Below are positions 55,739 through 64,000 of a stretch of 64,000 bases of DNA, in pieces. A model generated the notes under the pieces. That model ran no database searches. It was not told the DNA's origin and was given only the letters and a program-made list of their open reading frames with translations. Position 1 is the first letter of the stretch. The number at the start of each line of letters is the position of its first letter. The DNA is from Fluviicola sp. (GTDB lineage: Bacteria > Bacteroidota > Bacteroidia > Flavobacteriales_D > Crocinitomicaceae): NCBI GenBank assembly GCA_002733985.1, contig NVXP01000013.1:4310-68309 (forward strand), given 5' to 3'. A program made the position numbers and the translations under genes.

Positions 55739-57292
55739 CTACTTCACTTTCAATAACTTCGAGTGAACCAAACCAGACTCCTTTTTTATCTGAACAATGT
55801 ATTCACCAGCTGGTAAATCATCTATCTGCATTGGAATATTGTGTTCTCCTTGTGAAAGGTTACCATCATACACAGCAATTACCAATCGGTGCTGAATATC
55901 GAAAATATCCACCTTCACCCATTCGTTTTGAGCTACAAAGCGAATCGTTGCATTTGTATTGGCTGGATTCGGATAAACAATCGCTCTTGCAACAGTCAAT
56001 TCTTCTTCCTCAATTCCAACATTACACGCTCCAAGAATTGGATAGTACGTAATGGTATGTTCGAAGAAGGTTTGGATTTCTGCTGTTGGAACCTCGAACC
56101 AATCTTTCAAGATCGAAGCATAAATATCTCGGAAATCATATTGCATTGGAATTCCTTCTTGAGTAACAACTGTATTTCCAATTACAGGATTTGCACCCAT
56201 GATATTCGTATTCAAACATGAACCAAATAAGAACATTGGAGCGGCATCACCGTGATCAGTTCCTAAACTCGCATTAGAAGCAACTTGTCTTCCGAATTCT
56301 GAGAAGGTCATTCCTGCTACACGTTCATGATGATTCATTTGTTGCAAATCCGCTTGAAATGAAGAAACTGCATCTGAAATACGCTTTAATAAATCTGCGT
56401 GCGATCCTTCTTGCGTTGATGTTGTTGACACTTGCGCATTGTGCGTATCAAATCCATTTACATTCAGGATATATACATTCGTCTGCAAACCTCCATCGAT
56501 CATTTGAGCCACATATCTCAATTGCTGAGCCAGCGGATTTGTTAAATCGTACAAAGATGCGAGACTAGCTGTTCCATTCGTAGCAGCAGTATTCACTTGA
56601 GCGCCAAAAGCATTCGCCTGATTGATTAGCGTCGTCAAATACTCCATGTGATCGCCATAGTACGTTCCATCATTTGTTGCGCCTCCACTCGAAAGGTTGT
56701 AGACATCAAAAGGATCTTCCACTGCATGACAGAAGTTAGCCATGATTCCTTGACAGGTTGCCGAAACATCGTAGCCCAAACTAATTGCAAATGGGTCCGG
56801 ACATTGCGTTGACGGGTAACCCGTTGGATAGCCAGGGTATTCACCATCCAAAAACCGACCTAACCAACCAGTATCTGCTTGTGAATCAATCAATCCTGAA
56901 GACCAAATATCCATTGATCTAAAGTGTGATCTATTCTGTTCAGGGTAACCAACATTTTGAATAATTCCTAAACTTCCAGAATCATACATTGCTTTCATTC
57001 CAGTCATTTTTGGGTGCAGCCCCACTTCTGTCGTTAATTCTAGAACATCGTTTTCTGGAATAAGAACATTGCTTCTTTGGATTGTTAAGTTCGAGTATTG
57101 ATCTCTTGGAATAACAGTATTTAGTCCATCATTACCTCCATTCATTCGAATAATAACCAAAATACGATCCTCATTACTCTTGGCTATGCTAAATAATTTC
57201 TTGCCTATCGATTGCACCTTCATATCATTGAGAAGTACAGGAGTCCCCGCTGATACAAGTGCTAAGCTTCTTACAAAATCTCTTCTTTTCAT
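55739..57292 (-). CDS. DUF1501 (sulfatase-fold) protein with an N-terminal twin-arginine signal and a C-terminal T9SS type A sorting domain
   Basis: Tat motif MKRRDFVRSLAL. DUF1501 blocks RMNGGNDGLNTVIP, GFDTHNAQ and FSEFGRQVASNASLGTDHGDA. C-terminus VYPNPANTNATIRF...GEYIVQIKKESG...KLLKVK. Confidence 0.8.
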   Translation of the reverse strand: MKRRDFVRSLALVSAGTPVLLNDMKVQSIGKKLFSIAKSNEDRILVIIRMNGGNDGLNTVIPRDQYSNLTIQRSNVLIPENDVLELTTEVGLHPKMTGMKAMYDSGSLGIIQNVGYPEQNRSHFRSMDIWSSGLIDSQADTGWLGRFLDGEYPGYPTGYPSTQCPDPFAISLGYDVSATCQGIMANFCHAVEDPFDVYNLSSGGATNDGTYYGDHMEYLTTLINQANAFGAQVNTAATNGTASLASLYDLTNPLAQQLRYVAQMIDGGLQTNVYILNVNGFDTHNAQVSTTSTQEGSHADLLKRISDAVSSFQADLQQMNHHERVAGMTFSEFGRQVASNASLGTDHGDAAPMFLFGSCLNTNIMGANPVIGNTVVTQEGIPMQYDFRDIYASILKDWFEVPTAEIQTFFEHTITYYPILGACNVGIEEEELTVARAIVYPNPANTNATIRFVAQNEWVKVDIFDIQHRLVIAVYDGNLSQGEHNIPMQIDDLPAGEYIVQIKKESGLVHSKLLKVK

Positions 57293-57310: not shown

Positions 57311-58927
57311 CTATATCGTTTGAAATTCTGGCATGTGGAATACCTGTTGCAATACCAAATCAACGCGTTGTTTTATTGGATCGGAATACGTTGCGTTTCC
57401 TGGATTCGCTAGGTATTCATTGTACTGCAATGTCCATTCAAAATCAGGTAAACCATTTGTTAGAACAGCCTTTAAAATAACTTTCTGAGTTGCTGACATT
57501 CCTTTCGGAGTGAAAACATCGGCAATATCATCTATCACTGCAATCGCATCTGCTGGAAGTGAAAGATTATCTAAGAACGTAAGTATGCTCAATTTCCAAT
57601 TGCTTCCATTCCCTGGGATGCCTGTCAATAAGGTCATGAAATCGGTAATCTGAAAACGCGTTTTTATCAGCGCTGAGTTTACCCACAACTGTGAATAAGC
57701 TGGTGTTTGATAATAAGCTGGCCAACCTGCAACACTTGGAGGCGAGGCATAAGCTTGCCCCATTACTGTTGCGAACTGATATACAAGCAAGTACATTTCC
57801 GAATCCGTGACCAAATCAAACCCTGGAATCGATTCAGTACTATTAAACATAGAAAAGGTCATGTCGATGGGGCTTTTAATCAAGGCTCCACGGACAGATA
57901 AATCATAGAAATGCTCGCTTAACAGCAATTCTGTCATTACAGGAAGTATTTCATAATTATTGGAAATCAAGGTCGCAGCCATGATCGGAATTACGTTCGT
58001 TTCGACGTCCGTTGTTAAATCATAGTTGACATAATAGCGGTACAATTTCCTACATATATATTCTGCTGCTGCGTTTTGCCCAAAAATAATATCAATGTAA
58101 TCTGAGTATTCATTGGCACCATTATCTGGAATAGTTGCGTTTCCAAAATGAGCAGATAATGTTTTCGTTGATGTGTCGTGTAATAATGGTGTGAAATTCG
58201 ATACTACATCTGTTAGTGTGCTACTTCCAAGTCCATCTACCAAATATCCCGTTAAGATTTTCGCACCAGCAGCAACATCATCTTCCGTGTAATTCGTATA
58301 ATCACCAGGACCAATTTGTGGCCCTTTACCTACGGTAAACAATTCAAGTAGTTCACGCGCATAATTTTCATTGGGACTATATAAAGTATTCGTTGCACCG
58401 TTCAAGAACAACAGCATCGCTGGATTGATGGTCATGTCCTTTACAAATTGCTTGAAATTTCCTAGGGCAAATTGCCGAATAAGATCAAAGTAATCGAATG
58501 TTGCTCTAGGGTCTGGTGCCACCGTACTCGCAAAATGATTTTGCCAAAACAAACACATTTTTTCCGCGATCGTGAATTGCTCTTCATTCACACGCGTCAT
58601 CAGCCATGTTGCAAGTGAAAAATTTCTAGCCTCCACTGTTGCAAGAAGATCTGCTTGCACCGTTGGATAAACATCATTCACCCATGAATTTCCAAATGCT
58701 GTTATCGTTTCAGCAGGAAGATAAGCTACGGGTTCAGCAATAACAGGGATTTGAAGTAAATTCCCAACAGTTATTGCCATTCCATCTGATTCTGCAGTAA
58801 GAATTTGTTGATTGGTAGGGCCGAAAAGTGTTCTTCTCAAAAGGTGACCAGCTTCTATCTTCGTCCATGGTCCACTGTAGGGTGCCATGTTATACGAAAT
58901 CGGGCCGTTGTCTATTTGTTCAGGCAT
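57311..58927 (-). CDS. DUF1800 family protein (no evident signal peptide)
   Basis: Blocks HLLRRTLFGPT, LFWQNHFAS and NENYARELLELFTVG. Lies 18 nt upstream of the DUF1501 gene. Confidence 0.8.
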   Translation of the reverse strand: MPEQIDNGPISYNMAPYSGPWTKIEAGHLLRRTLFGPTNQQILTAESDGMAITVGNLLQIPVIAEPVAYLPAETITAFGNSWVNDVYPTVQADLLATVEARNFSLATWLMTRVNEEQFTIAEKMCLFWQNHFASTVAPDPRATFDYFDLIRQFALGNFKQFVKDMTINPAMLLFLNGATNTLYSPNENYARELLELFTVGKGPQIGPGDYTNYTEDDVAAGAKILTGYLVDGLGSSTLTDVVSNFTPLLHDTSTKTLSAHFGNATIPDNGANEYSDYIDIIFGQNAAAEYICRKLYRYYVNYDLTTDVETNVIPIMAATLISNNYEILPVMTELLLSEHFYDLSVRGALIKSPIDMTFSMFNSTESIPGFDLVTDSEMYLLVYQFATVMGQAYASPPSVAGWPAYYQTPAYSQLWVNSALIKTRFQITDFMTLLTGIPGNGSNWKLSILTFLDNLSLPADAIAVIDDIADVFTPKGMSATQKVILKAVLTNGLPDFEWTLQYNEYLANPGNATYSDPIKQRVDLVLQQVFHMPEFQTI

Positions 58928-58987
58928 GTGTAGTATGTTTGGAACATTGAAAATACGAAAAGTGATTTAGATAGACAATCTAATGAT

Positions 58988-59128
58988 CTGTTATTCATTT
59001 GTTAATGATAAGTCATAACCGATCATGCATTCTCAGCATATATCACCAAACATTACTTTATGAAACAATCACTTATTCTTCTATTCGGATTATTCTCAGT
59101 TGCCAATTATTCTGCTGCTCAAGACTCC
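58988..59128 (+). repeat. Left copy of a ~140-bp direct repeat bracketing the FMO-SDR-S8 cassette
   Basis: Aligns with 63134-63273. Includes a 49-bp perfect core tatatcaccaaacattactttatgaaacaatcacttattcttctattcg (59039-59087 = 63184-63232). Confidence 0.9.
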
Positions 59129-59140
59129 GGAGAGATATAA
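59060..59140 (+). pseudogene. Signal-peptide-only remnant (26 codons) of a paralogue of the 63205 gene
   Basis: MKQSLILLFGLFSVANYSAAQDSGEI* compares with MKQSLILLFALFSAANYSSAQDSDPIQ... at 63205. Confidence 0.7.
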
Positions 59141-59172
59141 GATAACTGAACCATCACGGGGGAAATTTATAT

Positions 59173-60873
59173 TCATTTAGTCATCCTTCTACGAAAAGAA
59201 CTATTTCGGTTTACTCCTTGTTTTCCCACAAGGAATTGGTTAAACGAACTACTGCCAGAGGATTCAAACTCACGTATGGAACGTTTACATTCGTCTGTGG
59301 TTGGTGCAAACGATGGATCGAGGAGTTTTTCAACATCGAGCAATCCACGGAAATTACGATACCACCGCTTTGTCCATTTAATTTTTTGATTCAGAAGCTC
59401 ATTTTTGGAATGAAACAACCCATACCTAAAAGCTTCCACCACCCGATTATTCAATGCATTTGGATGATGTGAATTGTGTTGTGTGTAAAATTCGTCCTGC
59501 CTCAAACTCTCAGAATAAACGTGTTTCCAAAGTGCTGCAGCCGAAGAAACGTGAACAGTCGCCTGACTTGTTGCACCCCCAAATTTATAGAGGTGCCCAT
59601 TCTCCAATTGTTCTTTCAACTTTCCATCTTGAATTTTATCAAGTGATATTTCAAATGGGGTGTAAATGTATTTGCCAGGAGCTGAAATGTCAACATTAGT
59701 CCCTCCACAGGATTTAGACCATGGAATTAATTGTAATTCTTCTTCAAGCATTATCGGCTCCAGCGCAGCCACAGCAATTGTCTCGAAGTATTTCGCTGGT
59801 TTCACTATTCCAAATAATGTTGAGTAGAAGCGTGAATTTCCCGCTGCGCAAACAACGATGATACCTTGGTTATATGCCTGCCTAATTTTGTTGCGTATGA
59901 CTTTGTCCTTTTTCCCTCTAAACCCTCCTCCTAGGCTAATGGTAATGATGTCGGCTTGACGTTCGATGGCATGATCCAACCCAGCAATAATGTTTGCGGC
60001 ATCACTTACATTGTTGAAGAACTTTGTCCCTAATTTACCGCCCAAGATCACTGTTTTGCTCGCTTTTAAACACGTGAAGTCCACATAAGGGAACAATCCT
60101 TGCGAGATTTTCGTTTTGAAGATCGCATCGAGTTCGCTGAAAATTGTCTCTAAGGTATTCGGCCAATCCCCTTTTTCTAGGCCAGTTATTCCAATCATCG
60201 TCGCTGCTGTAGAAGTACTATGCCCCGGCTTTTGAAAGCCTCCCATAAGCAAATAATAGCTCTCAAGATCGTCCTTTCCCGCAATTCGTTTTAGCTGATC
60301 ATTGAGTGCGACCGAAGGAGTTTGTTCTTTTTCAATGGAATTATATCTCGGGTAATCAAATACAACGGGATGCGTAGAATGACCACTGTCAAATTGAAAA
60401 ACTTTGATCTCGGTCGCAAAAGCACCAAGAGACAAGTCTAGACTTCCATACTCGTTTTTTCCTTCACTAACGTATTGTATCGCCTGGGGAAAACGAACAC
60501 AATCATGGTTCCACAAGTAGTTCGGCTGACTTGTCTGTTGTCCCGATTTGTCAATTAACCTGGGGATATTAACGTTCCATTTTTCCTGTGTGGCTGACCC
60601 ATTCATGGTGCTGTTCAAGGTATTCAGGTCGTAAAACAATTTCCCACCATGCTGCTTAATGAGTTTTCGTACACGATTTTTGATCCGTGCTATTTTGCGC
60701 GTTCGTCTAGATGGCAATTGAATTGAGATCAACAATTCCTGACGATCGTTTATACTAAAAGTTCGTTTTGAATTTCGAGCACCCAAAATTCTGAGAACTG
60801 AAGTAGAGAATTTCTTCTCCTCAAGTTCTGTGGGAATCTGAATTTTCATTGATATGTGTACATGTTCTTTCAT
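59173..60873 (-). CDS. Subtilisin-like (S8) serine peptidase homologue with no signal peptide and an unknown ~150-aa N-terminal region
   Basis: Triad contexts VFQFDSGHSTHP (Asp), PGHSTSTAATMIG (His), VCAAGNS (oxyanion Asn) and GGATSQATVHVSSAAALW (Ser). ATGA overlap with the SDR stop. Confidence 0.7.
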   Translation of the reverse strand: MKEHVHISMKIQIPTELEEKKFSTSVLRILGARNSKRTFSINDRQELLISIQLPSRRTRKIARIKNRVRKLIKQHGGKLFYDLNTLNSTMNGSATQEKWNVNIPRLIDKSGQQTSQPNYLWNHDCVRFPQAIQYVSEGKNEYGSLDLSLGAFATEIKVFQFDSGHSTHPVVFDYPRYNSIEKEQTPSVALNDQLKRIAGKDDLESYYLLMGGFQKPGHSTSTAATMIGITGLEKGDWPNTLETIFSELDAIFKTKISQGLFPYVDFTCLKASKTVILGGKLGTKFFNNVSDAANIIAGLDHAIERQADIITISLGGGFRGKKDKVIRNKIRQAYNQGIIVVCAAGNSRFYSTLFGIVKPAKYFETIAVAALEPIMLEEELQLIPWSKSCGGTNVDISAPGKYIYTPFEISLDKIQDGKLKEQLENGHLYKFGGATSQATVHVSSAAALWKHVYSESLRQDEFYTQHNSHHPNALNNRVVEAFRYGLFHSKNELLNQKIKWTKRWYRNFRGLLDVEKLLDPSFAPTTDECKRSIREFESSGSSSFNQFLVGKQGVNRNSSFRRRMTK

Positions 60874-61640
60874 TGATTATTCGTCATATTGTGAATCATT
60901 AATTTCATGTATAAATTTGGATGCCTTTTTGCCAAGAGACTGATCAACAATGCTCTGAGACTTGGGTTGAGTCTCCTTTTCTTCCAATTCCAGGCAACTC
61001 TTATGCGTCGTGCCAGTTGTTTTGGAGATCCATGCGATTTGTTCTTTTCTTGCTTGAATTTGGCTCTAAGTTGTGTCCTAATAAAGTCCGGATAGACCAC
61101 TAAAATGTCAACCTCTTTCTGGCATTCGGCTCTCAGTGTTTCGAAGAAACCACGAAGAGCGTGTTTGGAGGATGTGTATGCTCCTCTGCCAATTAAAGGA
61201 GAGAAACCTGTCACACTGTTAATCACTATAATCGTTCCTTTATTGACTTTCAGCGTAGGTAAAAATTCTTTGGTTAGCGACACTGAAGACCAGAAATTCA
61301 CTTCAAAAACATCGCGCATTTTATCCAAATCACAGGTGATTATTGGCTCTATATGAGTAATACCAGCATTGTTGATCAGAATGTCAATTCCACCGTACTT
61401 GGTGAGTACAGAAGTCGCATACTCTGAATTGGCATTAGGAGCCGTCAAGTTGAATACGCTTATGTCATGCATAATCCCCAGTTGATCCAGTGTGTTTGTC
61501 AACTTCTGAACTGCTTTAACATCTTTATCTAACCCCAATACAAAGCAACCTCGGGATCCAAATTCAATTGCCAATTGGCTCCCAATTCCCCCAGCTATGC
61601 CTGAGATTAACACCTTCTTATGTTTTAATTTCCTTCTCAT
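60870..61640 (-). CDS. Classical short-chain dehydrogenase/reductase
   Basis: VLISGIAGGIGSQLA (TGxxxGxG-like), NNAGI and YTSSKHAL (YxxxK). The ATG at 61640 forms an ATGA overlap with the FMO stop. An alternative ATG lies at 61661. Confidence 0.85.
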   Translation of the reverse strand: MRRKLKHKKVLISGIAGGIGSQLAIEFGSRGCFVLGLDKDVKAVQKLTNTLDQLGIMHDISVFNLTAPNANSEYATSVLTKYGGIDILINNAGITHIEPIITCDLDKMRDVFEVNFWSSVSLTKEFLPTLKVNKGTIIVINSVTGFSPLIGRGAYTSSKHALRGFFETLRAECQKEVDILVVYPDFIRTQLRAKFKQEKNKSHGSPKQLARRIRVAWNWKKRRLNPSLRALLISLLAKRHPNLYMKLMIHNMTNNQ

Positions 61641-62935
61641 ATCCGCAACATTGTTGACCATTTATGAAGTTGTTTCAAGTAGGTCCGTTTATTTACATAA
61701 TAACCCATCCGTCTTAAGTTTTTATAATTTATACTGCCGTTCATGGCCGTTCGTCCATTGCTTTTGTGTCGATTCATTTTGCAAAAGCCGCGTGTATTCT
61801 TGTCCTTATTTAAGATGTATAATGCGATTAATTTGGCCTGTTTGTTTTTCCCTTCCCAACCAATGGCTGTAGATTCAATGAGCCCAGCAATAAACAAATC
61901 GTCGTCAAATGGGTGGAAAATATTTAAGAACAGGTTGGGTACTTCATTCTCCCAGTTGAGGTACTTCTTCTCAATAAATGGATAGGAAATCTTATAGCCA
62001 GTAGCCAAAAGAATCAGATCAAATGTTTCGACAGTATTGTCTTTAAAAATAACTTGCTTCCCATCGAGCCGCTTGATATTAACCTTAGGAAAAATGTCTC
62101 CGTGTCTGATGTGATGTAACACAAGACTGTTTAAAACGGGGTGAATTTCGAATAACTTATGATCCGGTTTTTCTAAACCGTAATCTTCTGGTTTTCCAAT
62201 TGAAATCCCCGTCAGTATCCTAGAAATGAATCGTTTTATGGGAATTGGAAATCTTAGCCTTTCACCTACAAGATCGGTAGGAGTCCCAAATAAGAATTTC
62301 GGAAGATAGTGGTACCCACGTCGTGTACTCCAATGAACCGACTCCGCACTTTTTACTGCGTCCACTGCGATGTCGCAAGCACTGTTCCCTCCCCCTACGA
62401 TAAGTACTTTTTTGTCTTTGAATAAATCAGTTGATTTGTAGTCGAAAGAATGTACGATCTCACCGTCAAAGGTTCCTTCGAAGTTTGGTTTGTAGGGAGT
62501 ATGATAAAGACCTGAAGCGAGCACAAGTCCTTTAAACTGGTATTCGGACGAGTTTTCAAATTGAACGAGCCAGCCCTTAGAATTCTTTTTTACGTGCTGA
62601 ACTTCTGTGTCGAATGAGTAGTGTTCTCTGAGTTGATAAAAGTTGGTGTATTCATCCAGGTATTCTTTCATGGCATAGTGTGATGGATAGTCCGCGCTAT
62701 GGTTCATTGGAAAATCTGCAAATTCCGTATTCGTTTTTGAGGATATGGTGTGGGCAGATTCATACATGGCACTTTTCGAATTGGTAATGTCCCATACTCC
62801 ACCGATATCATGAGATGCCTCCACTGCATAGAAAGGGATGTTAAAATCTAGAAAGTTCTTAGCACAGGCAAGACCTGCCGGTCCCCCTCCAATAATGAGG
62901 TATTTACCCTTTGTATCATTCCAAATTTTCTTCAT
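61637..62935 (-). CDS. Class B flavin-containing monooxygenase (FMO-type)
   Basis: FAD motif IIGGGPAGL, exact FMO-identifying motif FxGxxxHxxxY (FDGEIVHSFDY), and NADPH motif IVGGGNSACD. Confidence 0.85.
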   Translation of the reverse strand: MKKIWNDTKGKYLIIGGGPAGLACAKNFLDFNIPFYAVEASHDIGGVWDITNSKSAMYESAHTISSKTNTEFADFPMNHSADYPSHYAMKEYLDEYTNFYQLREHYSFDTEVQHVKKNSKGWLVQFENSSEYQFKGLVLASGLYHTPYKPNFEGTFDGEIVHSFDYKSTDLFKDKKVLIVGGGNSACDIAVDAVKSAESVHWSTRRGYHYLPKFLFGTPTDLVGERLRFPIPIKRFISRILTGISIGKPEDYGLEKPDHKLFEIHPVLNSLVLHHIRHGDIFPKVNIKRLDGKQVIFKDNTVETFDLILLATGYKISYPFIEKKYLNWENEVPNLFLNIFHPFDDDLFIAGLIESTAIGWEGKNKQAKLIALYILNKDKNTRGFCKMNRHKSNGRTAMNGSINYKNLRRMGYYVNKRTYLKQLHKWSTMLRI

Positions 62936-63133
62936 ACGTCATAAAAGATGCAATGGCCGTGAAACAACCACTACTATAGTTTACCTATCTTCAGATCAGA
63001 TAGTTACATGAATAATGGTAAAGTATTCTAAATGGCGTAAAAAAAAGAATCAACCATTCTATTTGAGTAGGAGATAAGTATGTTTGGATATATATAAAAT
63101 ACAAAAATTGACTTACACACACAACATAAAAAA

Positions 63134-63273
63134 CTGTTATTCACTCGTTAACAAAAAATGTAACCTATCATAAATTCTCATCTTATATCACCAAACATTA
63201 CTTTATGAAACAATCACTTATTCTTCTATTCGCACTATTTTCAGCTGCCAATTATTCCTCCGCTCAAGATTCA
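63134..63273 (+). repeat. Right copy of the direct repeat bracketing the cassette
   Basis: See 58988-59128. Covers the promoter region and the first ~23 codons of the 63205 gene. Confidence 0.9.
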
Positions 63274-63699
63274 GACCCCATACAGTTTCCTCAACTCATC
63301 ACTGGAGGAGGTCACAATTTCCAAGTTATCGGAACAGATTCTCATGCCTTCGTGGATTCCCTTTTTACACAGTTTTCAGGCACAAAACGGAAAGGCTACG
63401 TATGGAAATTTAGAAAAGTTGAAATTCCCGGTATTTCAGAACCAGTGACACTTCAAGTTCATCAAGGAATAAAGGGCTATTACGAAAAGGAAAAGTGCGA
63501 TACCAATTCATGCGGAGGCGGTTCTTACTTTCACACATTTACAAGTGAGAAGTATAAGAAGAGTTTACTCAGTAGGAAAACGGACTTGGAACATCCCGCG
63601 ATTATTATCTACATCAAGAGAGGGCGCCAATACGGTTTAAAAACGAAAGAAGAAGCGGAAATTGCAAAGGCTTACCTCAGATCAATCTTCGAAGGGTAA
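63205..63699 (+). CDS. Hypothetical secreted protein
   Basis: Signal peptide MKQSLILLFALFSAANYSSAQ; 164 aa; no recognised domain. Confidence 0.6.
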   Translation: MKQSLILLFALFSAANYSSAQDSDPIQFPQLITGGGHNFQVIGTDSHAFVDSLFTQFSGTKRKGYVWKFRKVEIPGISEPVTLQVHQGIKGYYEKEKCDTNSCGGGSYFHTFTSEKYKKSLLSRKTDLEHPAIIIYIKRGRQYGLKTKEEAEIAKAYLRSIFEG

Positions 63700-63738
63700 G
63701 TCTGAGTTTGTTGGATTAGTGGCGGTGTTGATTTTGAC

Positions 63739-63778
63739 GATTGTTAGATTGTTGGATTGTTGGATTGTTGGATTGTTT
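63739..63778. repeat. Octanucleotide microsatellite GATTGTTR x5
   Basis: gattgtta gattgttg gattgttg gattgttg gattgttt, located 31 nt upstream of the ATG at 63809. Confidence 0.9.
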
Positions 63779-63808
63779 ATATCTTGCGATAACCACAACA
63801 CAATAGCA

Positions 63809-64000
63809 ATGAGCGATCGCACAATTGAAGAAATAATAGATTCCCTCGAACAGATTATTCAGACCTCAAAGGAAACAGAAAATCCTTTGGGATATTTTGC
63901 AGCACTCTATCAAAAAGTCACGATTACGATCAAAGACAAACTTGGTACTGATTATTTCGACGACGATGCTCGAATGGAAAAATTGGATGTGACATTTGCC
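63809..64000 (+). CDS. Partial CDS (5' end only), possibly DUF5995-like
   Basis: Open frame from the ATG at 63809 to the window end (64 codons): MSDRTIEEIIDSLEQII...NPLGYFAALYQKVTITIK...ARMEKLDVTFA. The family assignment is from memory of the GYFAALY / RME.LDV.FA pattern. Confidence 0.5.
   Translation, partial: MSDRTIEEIIDSLEQIIQTSKETENPLGYFAALYQKVTITIKDKLGTDYFDDDARMEKLDVTFA

Follow-up and report, generated by a model that had tools for sequence, protein, structure and literature searches.

The locus described here raises the question of how a block of three enzyme genes came to lie between two copies of the same gene start in the genome of the uncultured bacterium Fluviicola sp. (Crocinitomicaceae; G000). 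A preliminary description of the window, the whole 64,000-nucleotide stretch to which all positions refer, had offered two readings: the FMO-SDR-S8 cassette inserted into or next to the p164 gene with duplication of the 5′ end of this gene, as in some site-specific integrations, or it overwrote a tandem paralogue of p164. The features of the locus are listed in Table 1.

Table 1 Features of the FMO-SDR-S8 locus and its flanks (positions in the window)
Feature	Position	Strand	Evidence or remark
DUF1800 gene	57311..58927	-	Pfam PF08811, E 8e-79; leads the DUF1800-DUF1501 operon
Divergent 132-bp intergenic region, left copy	58928..59059	.	Alignments; length equals that of the single G075 intergenic region
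49-bp perfect core, left copy	59039..59087	.	Partner 63184-63232
Stub of a p164-type gene (dead 5′ fragment)	59060..59185	+	tblastn, residues 1-36, 67% identity, 1 TGA + 1 TAA
S8-family serine peptidase homologue, 566 aa, last operon gene	59173..60873	-	Pfam PF00082
Short-chain dehydrogenase/reductase (SDR), 263 aa	60870..61661	-	Pfam PF00106, E 5e-41
Flavin-containing monooxygenase-like protein (FMO), 432 aa, first operon gene	61637..62935	-	Pfam PF00743, E 1.5e-46
Cassette-specific leader upstream of FMO	62936..63072	-	No match to p164 3′ sequence or to the empty site
132-bp intergenic region, right copy, separating the FMO operon from p164	63073..63204	.	Alignments
p164, intact 164-aa secreted protein	63205..63699	+	Coding part of the right repeat: codons 1-42 (63205-63330)
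DUF5995 gene, 5′ part, right flank, runs off the window	ORF 63662-64000	+	Pfam PF19458; start codon presumably the ATG at 63809 (+)

Structure of the repeat and of the stub

The two copies of the direct repeat were placed at 58928-59185 and 63073-63330 by a repeat scan and pairwise alignment, which makes them about 260 bp long each; their starts lie 4145 bp apart. In the preliminary description a repeat of about 140 bp had been reported at 58988-59128 and 63134-63273. Its places and its perfect 49-bp core were reproduced by our alignment, and the upstream region, the ATG and the signal peptide (MKQSLILLF.LFS.ANYS.AQDS) said to be shared were seen in both copies; only the length had been underestimated. 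Each copy comprises the entire 132-bp DUF1800/p164 intergenic region and p164 codons 1 to ~42, and the left copy is abutted by the start codon of DUF1800, which forms the left flank. The core is composed of 21 nt upstream of the ATG and 28 nt of coding sequence.

The identity of the two copies varies by segment between 47 and 87%. In the intergenic part (58928-59059 versus 63073-63204), 102 of 133 positions are identical (77%), codons 1-23 show 87% identity, and codons 24-42 are degenerate (47%) yet still homologous in register. Within 59129-59172, 20 of 44 positions match the right copy (shuffle p ~0.001), and more patches extend to ~59185, near p164 codon 42. A further weak similarity of 17 nt (58911-58927 versus 63057-63071, both with TCTATTTG) is an uncertain extension of the repeat. 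Both the repeat and its core occur exactly twice in the 5.09-Mb assembly, a draft of 174 contigs, and at this locus only.

The left copy contains an ORF of 26 codons (59060-59140), little beyond the signal peptide, as stated before; the distance from its end to the S8 stop codon (59173) is 32 nt and not 33. Past this ORF the in-register homology runs with two stops to ~codon 42 and overlaps the last S8 codons on the opposite strand. This stub, like the left junction, is known from this one assembly. The right copy continues, as had been noted, into the ORF of the 164-aa secreted protein (63205-63699). The p164 family comprises 34 proteins without a Pfam match. The structure model of p164 was confident (pLDDT 85.6), and the best fold matches, to the BamC C-terminal domain (Z 7.4) and TBP (Z 6.9), were within the background.

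Cargo, composition and mobility functions

The insert of 3.9 kb, below the 20-kb limit set by the Furuta et al. (2010) criteria, carries three enzyme genes, and the Pfam scan found enzyme domains only. The S8 and SDR genes overlap by 4 nt, and SDR and FMO by 25 nt. In the alignment of S8 homologues, D162, H218 and S436 are invariant, and only the G000 group shares the last 13 residues. A sub-threshold Rfam match to group II D5 inside S8 was taken as chance. The cargo is rare: S8 homologues were found in 2 of 56 genomes of the genus and 5 of 401 of the order, FMO homologues in 3 of the 56, and the distant homologues of S8 and FMO are unlinked to each other. A search of genome contigs with S8 gave no match, and one metagenome scan with the S8 alignment gave two loci only, both irrelevant.

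The comparison of cassette composition that the preliminary description had proposed revealed no foreign signal. The GC content is 0.403 (genome, 0.389 ± 0.026) and the tetranucleotide distance lies at the 6th percentile of genome windows; both are typical of the host. Eight tyrosine recombinases (PF00589) are encoded in the genome but none on the 69-kb contig of the cassette. The repeat scan detected no terminal inverted repeats at the cassette ends, only short and imperfect internal inverted pairs. These scans agree with the preliminary description, in which no integrase, transposase or inverted repeats were seen at the cassette. The hallmarks of transposon or IS insertion (transposase, terminal inverted repeats, short target duplication) are thus absent from the locus, and so are those of an integrative element (cognate integrase nearby, reuse of an att core), the core being present only in the two repeat copies.

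The empty site in G075

G075 is the species with the most similar DUF1800 (83% identity). Its locus L054 has the order DUF1800, 132-bp spacer, p164 and DUF5995, with a single copy of the target, to which both repeats aligned in a three-way alignment. We consider G075 an empty site because one target copy is directly followed by the 164-aa gene, which is the arrangement foreseen in the preliminary description. In G018, G068, G012 and G022, DUF1800 directly adjoins DUF5995. DUF1800 orthologues occur in 45 of 55 genomes of the genus (62-83% identity). When DUF1800 was compared with nine relatives in a sliding identity profile, neither a mosaic nor a clearly closest species emerged at the DNA level.

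The site in G075, an assembly 72% complete, could also have arisen by secondary deletion between the repeats. The empty site alone would be compatible with a locus that was never occupied and with one from which the cassette was deleted by recombination; it cannot separate the two, and the polarity of gain and loss is unproven.

The repeat copies resemble the G075 target reciprocally. In the DUF1800-proximal spacer the left copy has an identity of 0.73 and the right copy of 0.59, and in codons 24-42 the right copy has 0.79 and the left copy 0.37, although in both segments differential constraint would give the same pattern. Between these segments the left and right copies are most alike (0.80-0.87).

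Within the intergenic region, the 78 nt proximal to DUF1800 are conserved across species and the distal 54 nt form a p164-type upstream region. Five other species have 30 invariant positions in common, of which the right spacer retains 27, a sign of constraint; at 18 of 50 variable positions the two spacer copies differ. Scans for sigma-70 promoters and terminators yielded hits at chance level only. Both repeats have a TAnnTTTG box on their plus strand (58934 and 63079), which is not conserved in the other species; the minus strand has none ahead of FMO or of DUF1800. The FMO operon may have captured a promoter, although no recognisable promoter consensus was found; by hypothesis, the duplicated divergent promoter region would let the newly acquired operon be expressed with neither neighbour silenced.

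Other assemblies and mosaic p164 alleles

The order p164-FMO-SDR-S8 is indicated in several other assemblies by protein-cluster records, on the basis of accession numbering and equal contig sizes. The NCBI MAG accessions of p164 and S8 are three numbers apart in two records. The protein records of close relatives come from contigs of 220 kb (P0003), 5,183 bp (P0040), 59,966 bp (P0042) and 3,680 bp (P0004). S8 (93%), SDR and the p164 protein P0042 share the 59,966-bp contig, and S8 (66%) and SDR (68%) the 3,680-bp contig.

The p164 alleles of those assemblies differ only, or mainly, in codons 10-42, that is, in the repeated part. P0077 and P0078 deviate from the G000 protein only in residues 10-42, residues 43-164 being 100% identical. 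P0042 has 29 of 33 residues identical to G000 in residues 10-42, and thereafter ~56% identity. Codons 24-42 of the G000 stub are neither of the P0041 type nor cleanly of the P0042 type, which means that no simple one-step history covers all alleles. The resident stub was rejected as a gene-conversion source of G000 codons 10-42, since it is only 47% identical to the right copy in codons 24-42; the 100% identity of residues 43-164 with the sister strains also speaks against it. The host-like composition, together with the gene order and the p164 alleles of the other assemblies, indicates that the insertion is old and shared and still acts as a recombination junction.

Origin of the arrangement

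The arrangement is a recombination scar of a described kind and not a new mobile element or mobility mechanism. We lean towards an old insertion with long target duplication, carrying a cargo other than restriction-modification genes and brought about by a Campbell-type or one-ended homologous event, as its probable origin. The divergence of the repeats, the host-like composition and the order shared by assemblies suggest neither a recent nor a site-specific event. The first of the two earlier readings is supported as regards insertion with duplication of the 5′ end, by the empty site and the rare cargo, but not as regards site specificity.

The mechanism would have been recombinational and not driven by a transposase or integrase, and the incoming DNA would have borne its own diverged copy of the target. 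Joining may have occurred by a single reciprocal crossover (Campbell-type), with the 49-bp core as the likely zone of crossover or conversion, or with homology confined to one end and the other end joined illegitimately. The left copy still serves DUF1800 and ends in the dead p164 stub; in the right copy p164 is kept intact, and a second conserved DUF1800-type upstream element stands ahead of FMO. After insertion, cassette-bearing strains have exchanged alleles by crossovers in the coding part of the repeat.

An event in situ, for which no donor lineage with the target beside the cassette is required, seems rather unlikely. Sister chromosomes or a staggered break would have been joined through a captured foreign fragment by illegitimate or microhomology-mediated repair, so that 260 bp were duplicated in tandem and the operon came to occupy the novel joint; unequal constraints would then account for the divergence of the copies, and gene conversion for the maintained core. 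A mechanism of this generic type is put forward for long target duplications in the portion of Furuta et al. (2010; PMC2853133) considered here, and TCTATTTG could represent microhomology at the right joint. The proximal spacer of the right copy is nearest to that of the left copy (0.76, compared with 0.53-0.65 for other species), and the reciprocal similarity pattern is also expected from differential selection on a duplication formed in situ. On the other hand, the left-right divergence of the proximal spacer (25%) is about as large as that between the left copy and G075 (27%), the right branch being ~3.5 times longer, and duplication in situ by itself leaves unexplained why the tracts of allelic exchange stop at the repeat boundary.

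It is improbable that the operon with one repeat copy (period 4,145 bp) is a recombinase-free mobile cassette which loops out through recombination between its repeats and re-enters any related genome with a p164-type gene start, each time restoring the target and bringing the operon under the duplicated DUF1800 promoter. If it were, the promoter-plus-signal-peptide module would serve Crocinitomicaceae generally as a landing pad for gene cassettes.

The second earlier reading, in which two full ancestral p164 genes stood in tandem with their own upstream regions and the first was largely overwritten by the operon, is very doubtful. The decayed homology of the stub, reaching past its 26-codon ORF to ~codon 42, is indeed pseudogene-like. 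Nevertheless, each of the 22 p164-bearing genomes among 401 genomes of the family had one full-length match (the G000 stub fell below the match threshold), and the two full-length tandem paralogues that would have contradicted an insertion were seen in none of them. Moreover, no second p164 5′ module was detected within ~10 kb at 8 other p164 loci, nor did the sequence ahead of the right repeat contain any remnant of a p164 3′ end, and the model does not predict that the right repeat begins at the DUF1800 start-codon boundary.

Equally little credence can be given to a non-autonomous integrative element (CIME-like) with a core over the p164 start, a replacement 5′ end on the element and a site-specific recombinase acting in trans. 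Its topology is identical to that of the Campbell model, the perfect 49-bp core lies between diverged arms, and a restored target and a displaced stub are found at tRNA-gene islands as well. Against it speak the lack of recombinases on the 69-kb contig, the occurrence of the core at two genomic places only and a cargo of three metabolic genes without mobility or transfer functions; arms that share 260 bp of homology, and allelic tracts that stop where this homology stops, point instead to homologous recombination.

A chimeric assembly of two strains or loci at the identical core, conceivable in a 174-contig draft where close, co-occurring strains vary at this locus precisely in the repeat, is extremely improbable, since the independent assemblies P0003 and P0088 have an identical or almost identical S8 C-terminal tail, which 59173-59214 at the junction encodes, unique sequence flanks each repeat copy on both sides, and path switching at 49 bp of identity is rare in modern assemblers.

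Comparison with known systems

Insertion with long target duplication is said to have been described by Nobusato and colleagues in 2000 (Gene 259:99). In the cases presented by Furuta, Abe and Kobayashi (2010; NAR 38:2428, PMC2853133), according to the portion of that paper considered here, repeats of 46 to ~420 bp, mostly 88-100% identical, often span start or stop codons, empty sites exist in related genomes, the cargo consists of restriction-modification genes, and DNA breakage made by the cargo is proposed as the driver. The Fluviicola locus resembles these cases in being a small block without mobility genes between long direct repeats that both align to one empty-site sequence, and its repeat, like theirs, is longer than 30 bp and not multi-copy. 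Since the repeats span the translation start, the target gene stays intact, both in those cases and here. The FMO-SDR-S8 cargo departs from the restriction-modification criterion, which defines the published screen and not the recombination outcome. The repeat identity, lower than that of most published cases, means that the event was much older or that the copies stem from different lineages. 

The position of the cargo between two hybrid homologous copies is also known from Campbell-type insertion-duplication and from the homology-facilitated illegitimate recombination of transformable bacteria (PMC3240628; merodiploids, PMC3784515). The reciprocal native and diverged halves and the identical core would fit such recombination, in which the donor-borne target copy would be the inferred element here. 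At tRNA-gene genomic islands and CIMEs, too, a gene end is duplicated, so that the target is restored and a stub remains, with an identical core in both repeats (attL and attR); unlike them, the present locus has no integrase, tRNA target or transfer functions, and its homology is much longer and degenerate. The Vibrio cholerae T6SS effector-immunity and Rhs/CDI displacement arrays (PMC5361080) likewise use a conserved gene end as a homology arm, there for exchanging the adjacent module, and contain orphan fragments and mosaic alleles. There, however, the arm is the 3′ end of the upstream gene and toxin/immunity modules are stacked, whereas here it is a 5′ promoter-plus-signal-peptide module with a single metabolic operon.

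The locus adds an example without restriction-modification genes to the poorly understood class of long target duplications, and one from Bacteroidota, which are not named among the cases in the portion of Furuta et al. (2010; PMC2853133) considered here. Such a scar can persist, be common to related strains and keep generating mosaic alleles of the flanking gene by crossover.

Results

The S8, SDR and FMO-like genes were assigned to one operon because they overlap by 4 nt (S8/SDR) and 25 nt (SDR/FMO). NCBIfam provided only generic names, all below its cut-offs, for the genes of the locus. Judged by the named sources of homologues, the organism belongs to Crocinitomicaceae. D162, H218 and S436 are invariant among the S8 homologues; no Pfam family matched the N-terminal region of about 280 residues, and its first residues (MKEHVHIS...) do not resemble a signal peptide. 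The FMO leader contains, shortly before the start codon, a terminator-like hairpin of 11 pairs followed by a T-rich tail; such sites occur at chance level in the region. Another FMO-like gene, a distant one at 37% identity, lies elsewhere in the host genome (G000; G000:C7:3862-4905); its counterpart in the genome G011 shares 38% identity with the query.

Features of the operon locus and of the two repeat copies
Feature	Coordinates	Strand	Basis or observation
DUF1501	55739-57292	minus	Pfam
DUF1800	57311-58927	minus	Pfam
Whole spacer, 132 bp (left vs right)	58928-59059 vs 63073-63204		102/133 identical
Repeat-scan segment	58950-59005 vs 63096-63151		77% identical
Repeat-scan segment	59016-59127 vs 63161-63272		88% identical
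Perfect core	59039-59087 = 63184-63232		49 bp
Left ORF (stub)	59060-59140		26 codons
p164 codons 1-23 (left vs right)			60/69 identical
Decayed homology	59129-59172		20/44 in-register matches, shuffle p about 0.001
Last recognisable patches (CATCAC.GG.G, AGT.ATC)	to about 59185		near p164 codon 42
S8 peptidase	59173-60873	minus	Pfam
Last 13 S8 residues	59173-59214		VNRNSSFRRRMTK
SDR	60870-61661	minus	Pfam
FMO-like	61637-62935	minus	Pfam
Upstream of FMO, 137 nt	62936-63072		no match at the G075 empty site
Terminator-like hairpin	62950-62974	minus	11 pairs
p164	63205-63699		164 aa; no family match in Pfam
DUF5995 (start of gene only)	right of p164		Pfam

The direct repeat that the preliminary description had placed around the operon is real. 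It was detected by a repeat scan as two segments with a spacing of 4145-4146 bp, and pairwise alignment showed that it runs unbroken across both, with single-base indels only. The perfect core was found as described, and so were the ATG and signal peptide in both copies; the left ORF ends 32 nt short of the S8 stop at 59173 and the right one continues into the complete secreted protein (p164). The location given for the repeat was correct, but its size of ~140 bp was not: the actual repeat extends over the whole divergent intergenic region between DUF1800 and p164 (the spacer) to about codon 42 of p164. In a protein-level search, the stub was readable to residue 36 across two stops. Only two copies of the repeat sequence are present in the 5.09-Mb, 174-contig assembly.

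Of the 55 other genomes of the genus, 45 have a DUF1800 orthologue, and the DNA upstream of that gene was retrieved from 12 of these 45. In the genome with the most similar DUF1800 (G075; 83% identical), a 132-bp spacer separates DUF1800 from p164, DUF5995 follows and the operon is absent; this is the empty site that had been suggested as a check, i.e. a single repeat copy followed by the 164-aa gene. In the three-way alignment, the left copy is flanked on its left by sequence corresponding to the 5' codons of the G075 DUF1800, the right copy matches G075 on into the p164 body, and the empty site has no counterpart to the 137 nt preceding FMO. The G075 arrangement could also stem from a deletion between the repeats, and the polarity of gain or loss is not proven. 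Genes of the cassette are scarce: S8 homologues were found in 2 of the 56 genomes of the genus and in 5 of the 401 of the order, FMO homologues in 3 of the 56; S8 and FMO homologues at about 40% identity are unlinked to each other.

The p164 gene itself has the appearance of an older insertion at this position, being located between DUF1800 and DUF5995 in G075 (L054 6765-9002) and G000. In four related species without p164 (G018, G068, G012 and G022; loci L055, L056, L059 and L062), DUF1800 faces DUF5995 directly, with a spacer of about 125-145 bp between the two genes. Since p164 is present in G075 and G000 and absent in the four related species, the DUF1800-side spacer is regarded as a recurrent insertion point. 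The p164 family is small, comprising 34 secreted proteins without a Pfam match, found only in Crocinitomicaceae among the genomes searched. The AlphaFold model of p164 is confident (pLDDT 85.6), but its resemblance to known folds (BamC/TBP-like, Z about 7) does not exceed background.

Likeness of the repeat copies to each other and to the G075 empty site
Segment	Left-G075	Right-G075	Left-right
Proximal (DUF1800-side) spacer, 58928-59005	0.73	0.59	0.75
Distal (p164-side) spacer, 59006-59059	0.48	0.55	0.80
p164 codons 1-23	0.52	0.61	0.87
p164 codons 24-42	0.37	0.79	0.47

Over the four segments, the two copies show reciprocal likeness to G075. One reciprocal crossover of the resident target with a diverged version of it would give this result, and so would relaxed constraint on both unused halves combined with gene conversion in the middle. 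The nearest sequence to the right proximal spacer is the left copy (0.76), and the left-right divergence of the spacer is about as large as that between left and G075. The proximal spacer is conserved across species, 30 positions being invariant in five others, and the left copy keeps 28 of these. The right DUF1800-type upstream element appears to be constrained as well, since it keeps 27 of the 30 invariant positions whereas the two copies differ at 18 of the 50 variable ones. By inference, promoter capture may have taken place, with this element now serving the FMO operon; the search for a promoter consensus gave no support. Both G000 copies retain the conserved plus-strand blocks TTACGAAAA, CTGTTA and GTTAA (within 58928-59005 and 63073-63150). 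Read on the DUF1800 strand, the latter two make up a TTAAC...TAACAG pair. These blocks might serve the DUF1800-DUF1501 operon as a leader element or as the site of a regulator.

The S8 tails of the G000 group and of P0089, P0090 and P0004 part after VGKQG, so the left junction may differ between lineages. The last 13 residues occur only in the G000 group, since homologues at 91-93% identity end otherwise, and the S8 frame seems to run into lineage-variable junction sequence.

Gene order in other assemblies was derived indirectly, from protein-cluster records (accession spacing, shared listed contig). An S8 protein at 98% identity is encoded on a 220-kb contig. The p164 and S8 accessions are three apart in two NCBI MAG records (NQZ35770/NQZ35767 and MCJ8289116/MCJ8289119), which in both fits the order p164, FMO, SDR, S8. 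A 59,966-bp Logan contig is listed for S8 P0090 (93%), SDR P0085 and p164 P0042, a 5,183-bp ENA contig for SDR P0073 (98%) and p164 P0040, and a 3,680-bp JGI contig for S8 P0004 (66%) and SDR P0075 (68%), from which we infer that SDR-S8 linkage extends to proteins only 66-68% identical.

The p164 alleles P0077 and P0078 are 100% identical to that of G000 in residues 43-164 and carry many differences in residues 10-42, where they are P0041-like. The differences of P0040 from G000 are confined to residues 10-29, and P0042 is identical to G000 at 29 of 33 positions in residues 10-42 but only at about 56% beyond. The alleles are mosaic, and recombination tracts among cassette-bearing strains therefore stop at the inner edge of the repeat, where the conserved stretch coding for LITGGGHNFQVIG also ends. 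Residues 10-29, where the signal peptide ends and the mature protein begins, are hypervariable, and alleles that are otherwise identical have exchanged them (proteins P0039-P0078).

Discussion

We interpret the locus as an old case of insertion with long target duplication, ordinary in kind, which was made and is maintained by general recombination and whose repeat is still a crossover point. The proposed insertion with duplication of the p164 5' end is supported by the repeat on both sides and by the G075 empty site. As to its origin, we somewhat favour an event in which the donor DNA would have carried its own diverged copy of the target and would have been integrated through homology, either in a Campbell-type event or at one end only. 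A duplication in situ, with the operon captured at a novel joint, is a less probable but still serious explanation. The composition of the cassette is typical of the genome: GC content is 0.403 compared with 0.389 +/- 0.026 (3.9-kb windows), the cassette ranks at the 6th percentile for tetranucleotide distance from the genome mean, and neither measure gave a signal of foreign origin.

The other explanations have only a small share of the probability. The stub might be the rest of a tandem p164 paralogue overwritten by the cassette, as was suggested previously; this found no support, as each of the 22 of 401 family (Crocinitomicaceae) genomes that bear p164 has a single full-length match, no second p164 5' module lies within about 10 kb at eight other p164 loci and no p164 3' remnant was found upstream of the right repeat. 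An integrative element mobilised in trans is similarly improbable. None of the eight tyrosine recombinases of the genome is encoded on the contig (C2), which ends 645 bp past the window, and the repeat scan detected no terminal inverted repeats of the cassette, in agreement with the absence of integrase and inverted repeats noted before. An assembly chimera is improbable too; the G000-type S8 tail was found again in independent assemblies, which argues against an artefact at the left junction.

The definition of insertion with long target duplication as a class goes back to Nobusato et al. (2000), and Furuta et al. (2010, PMC2853133) extended it. The class has repeats of 46 to about 420 bp, no mobility genes and an empty site in a related genome; frequently a start or stop codon lies within the repeats, which preserves the target gene. 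Compared with the class as described there, the cargo of the present locus is without restriction-modification genes and its repeats are far more diverged, whereas every structural trait of the class is found here.
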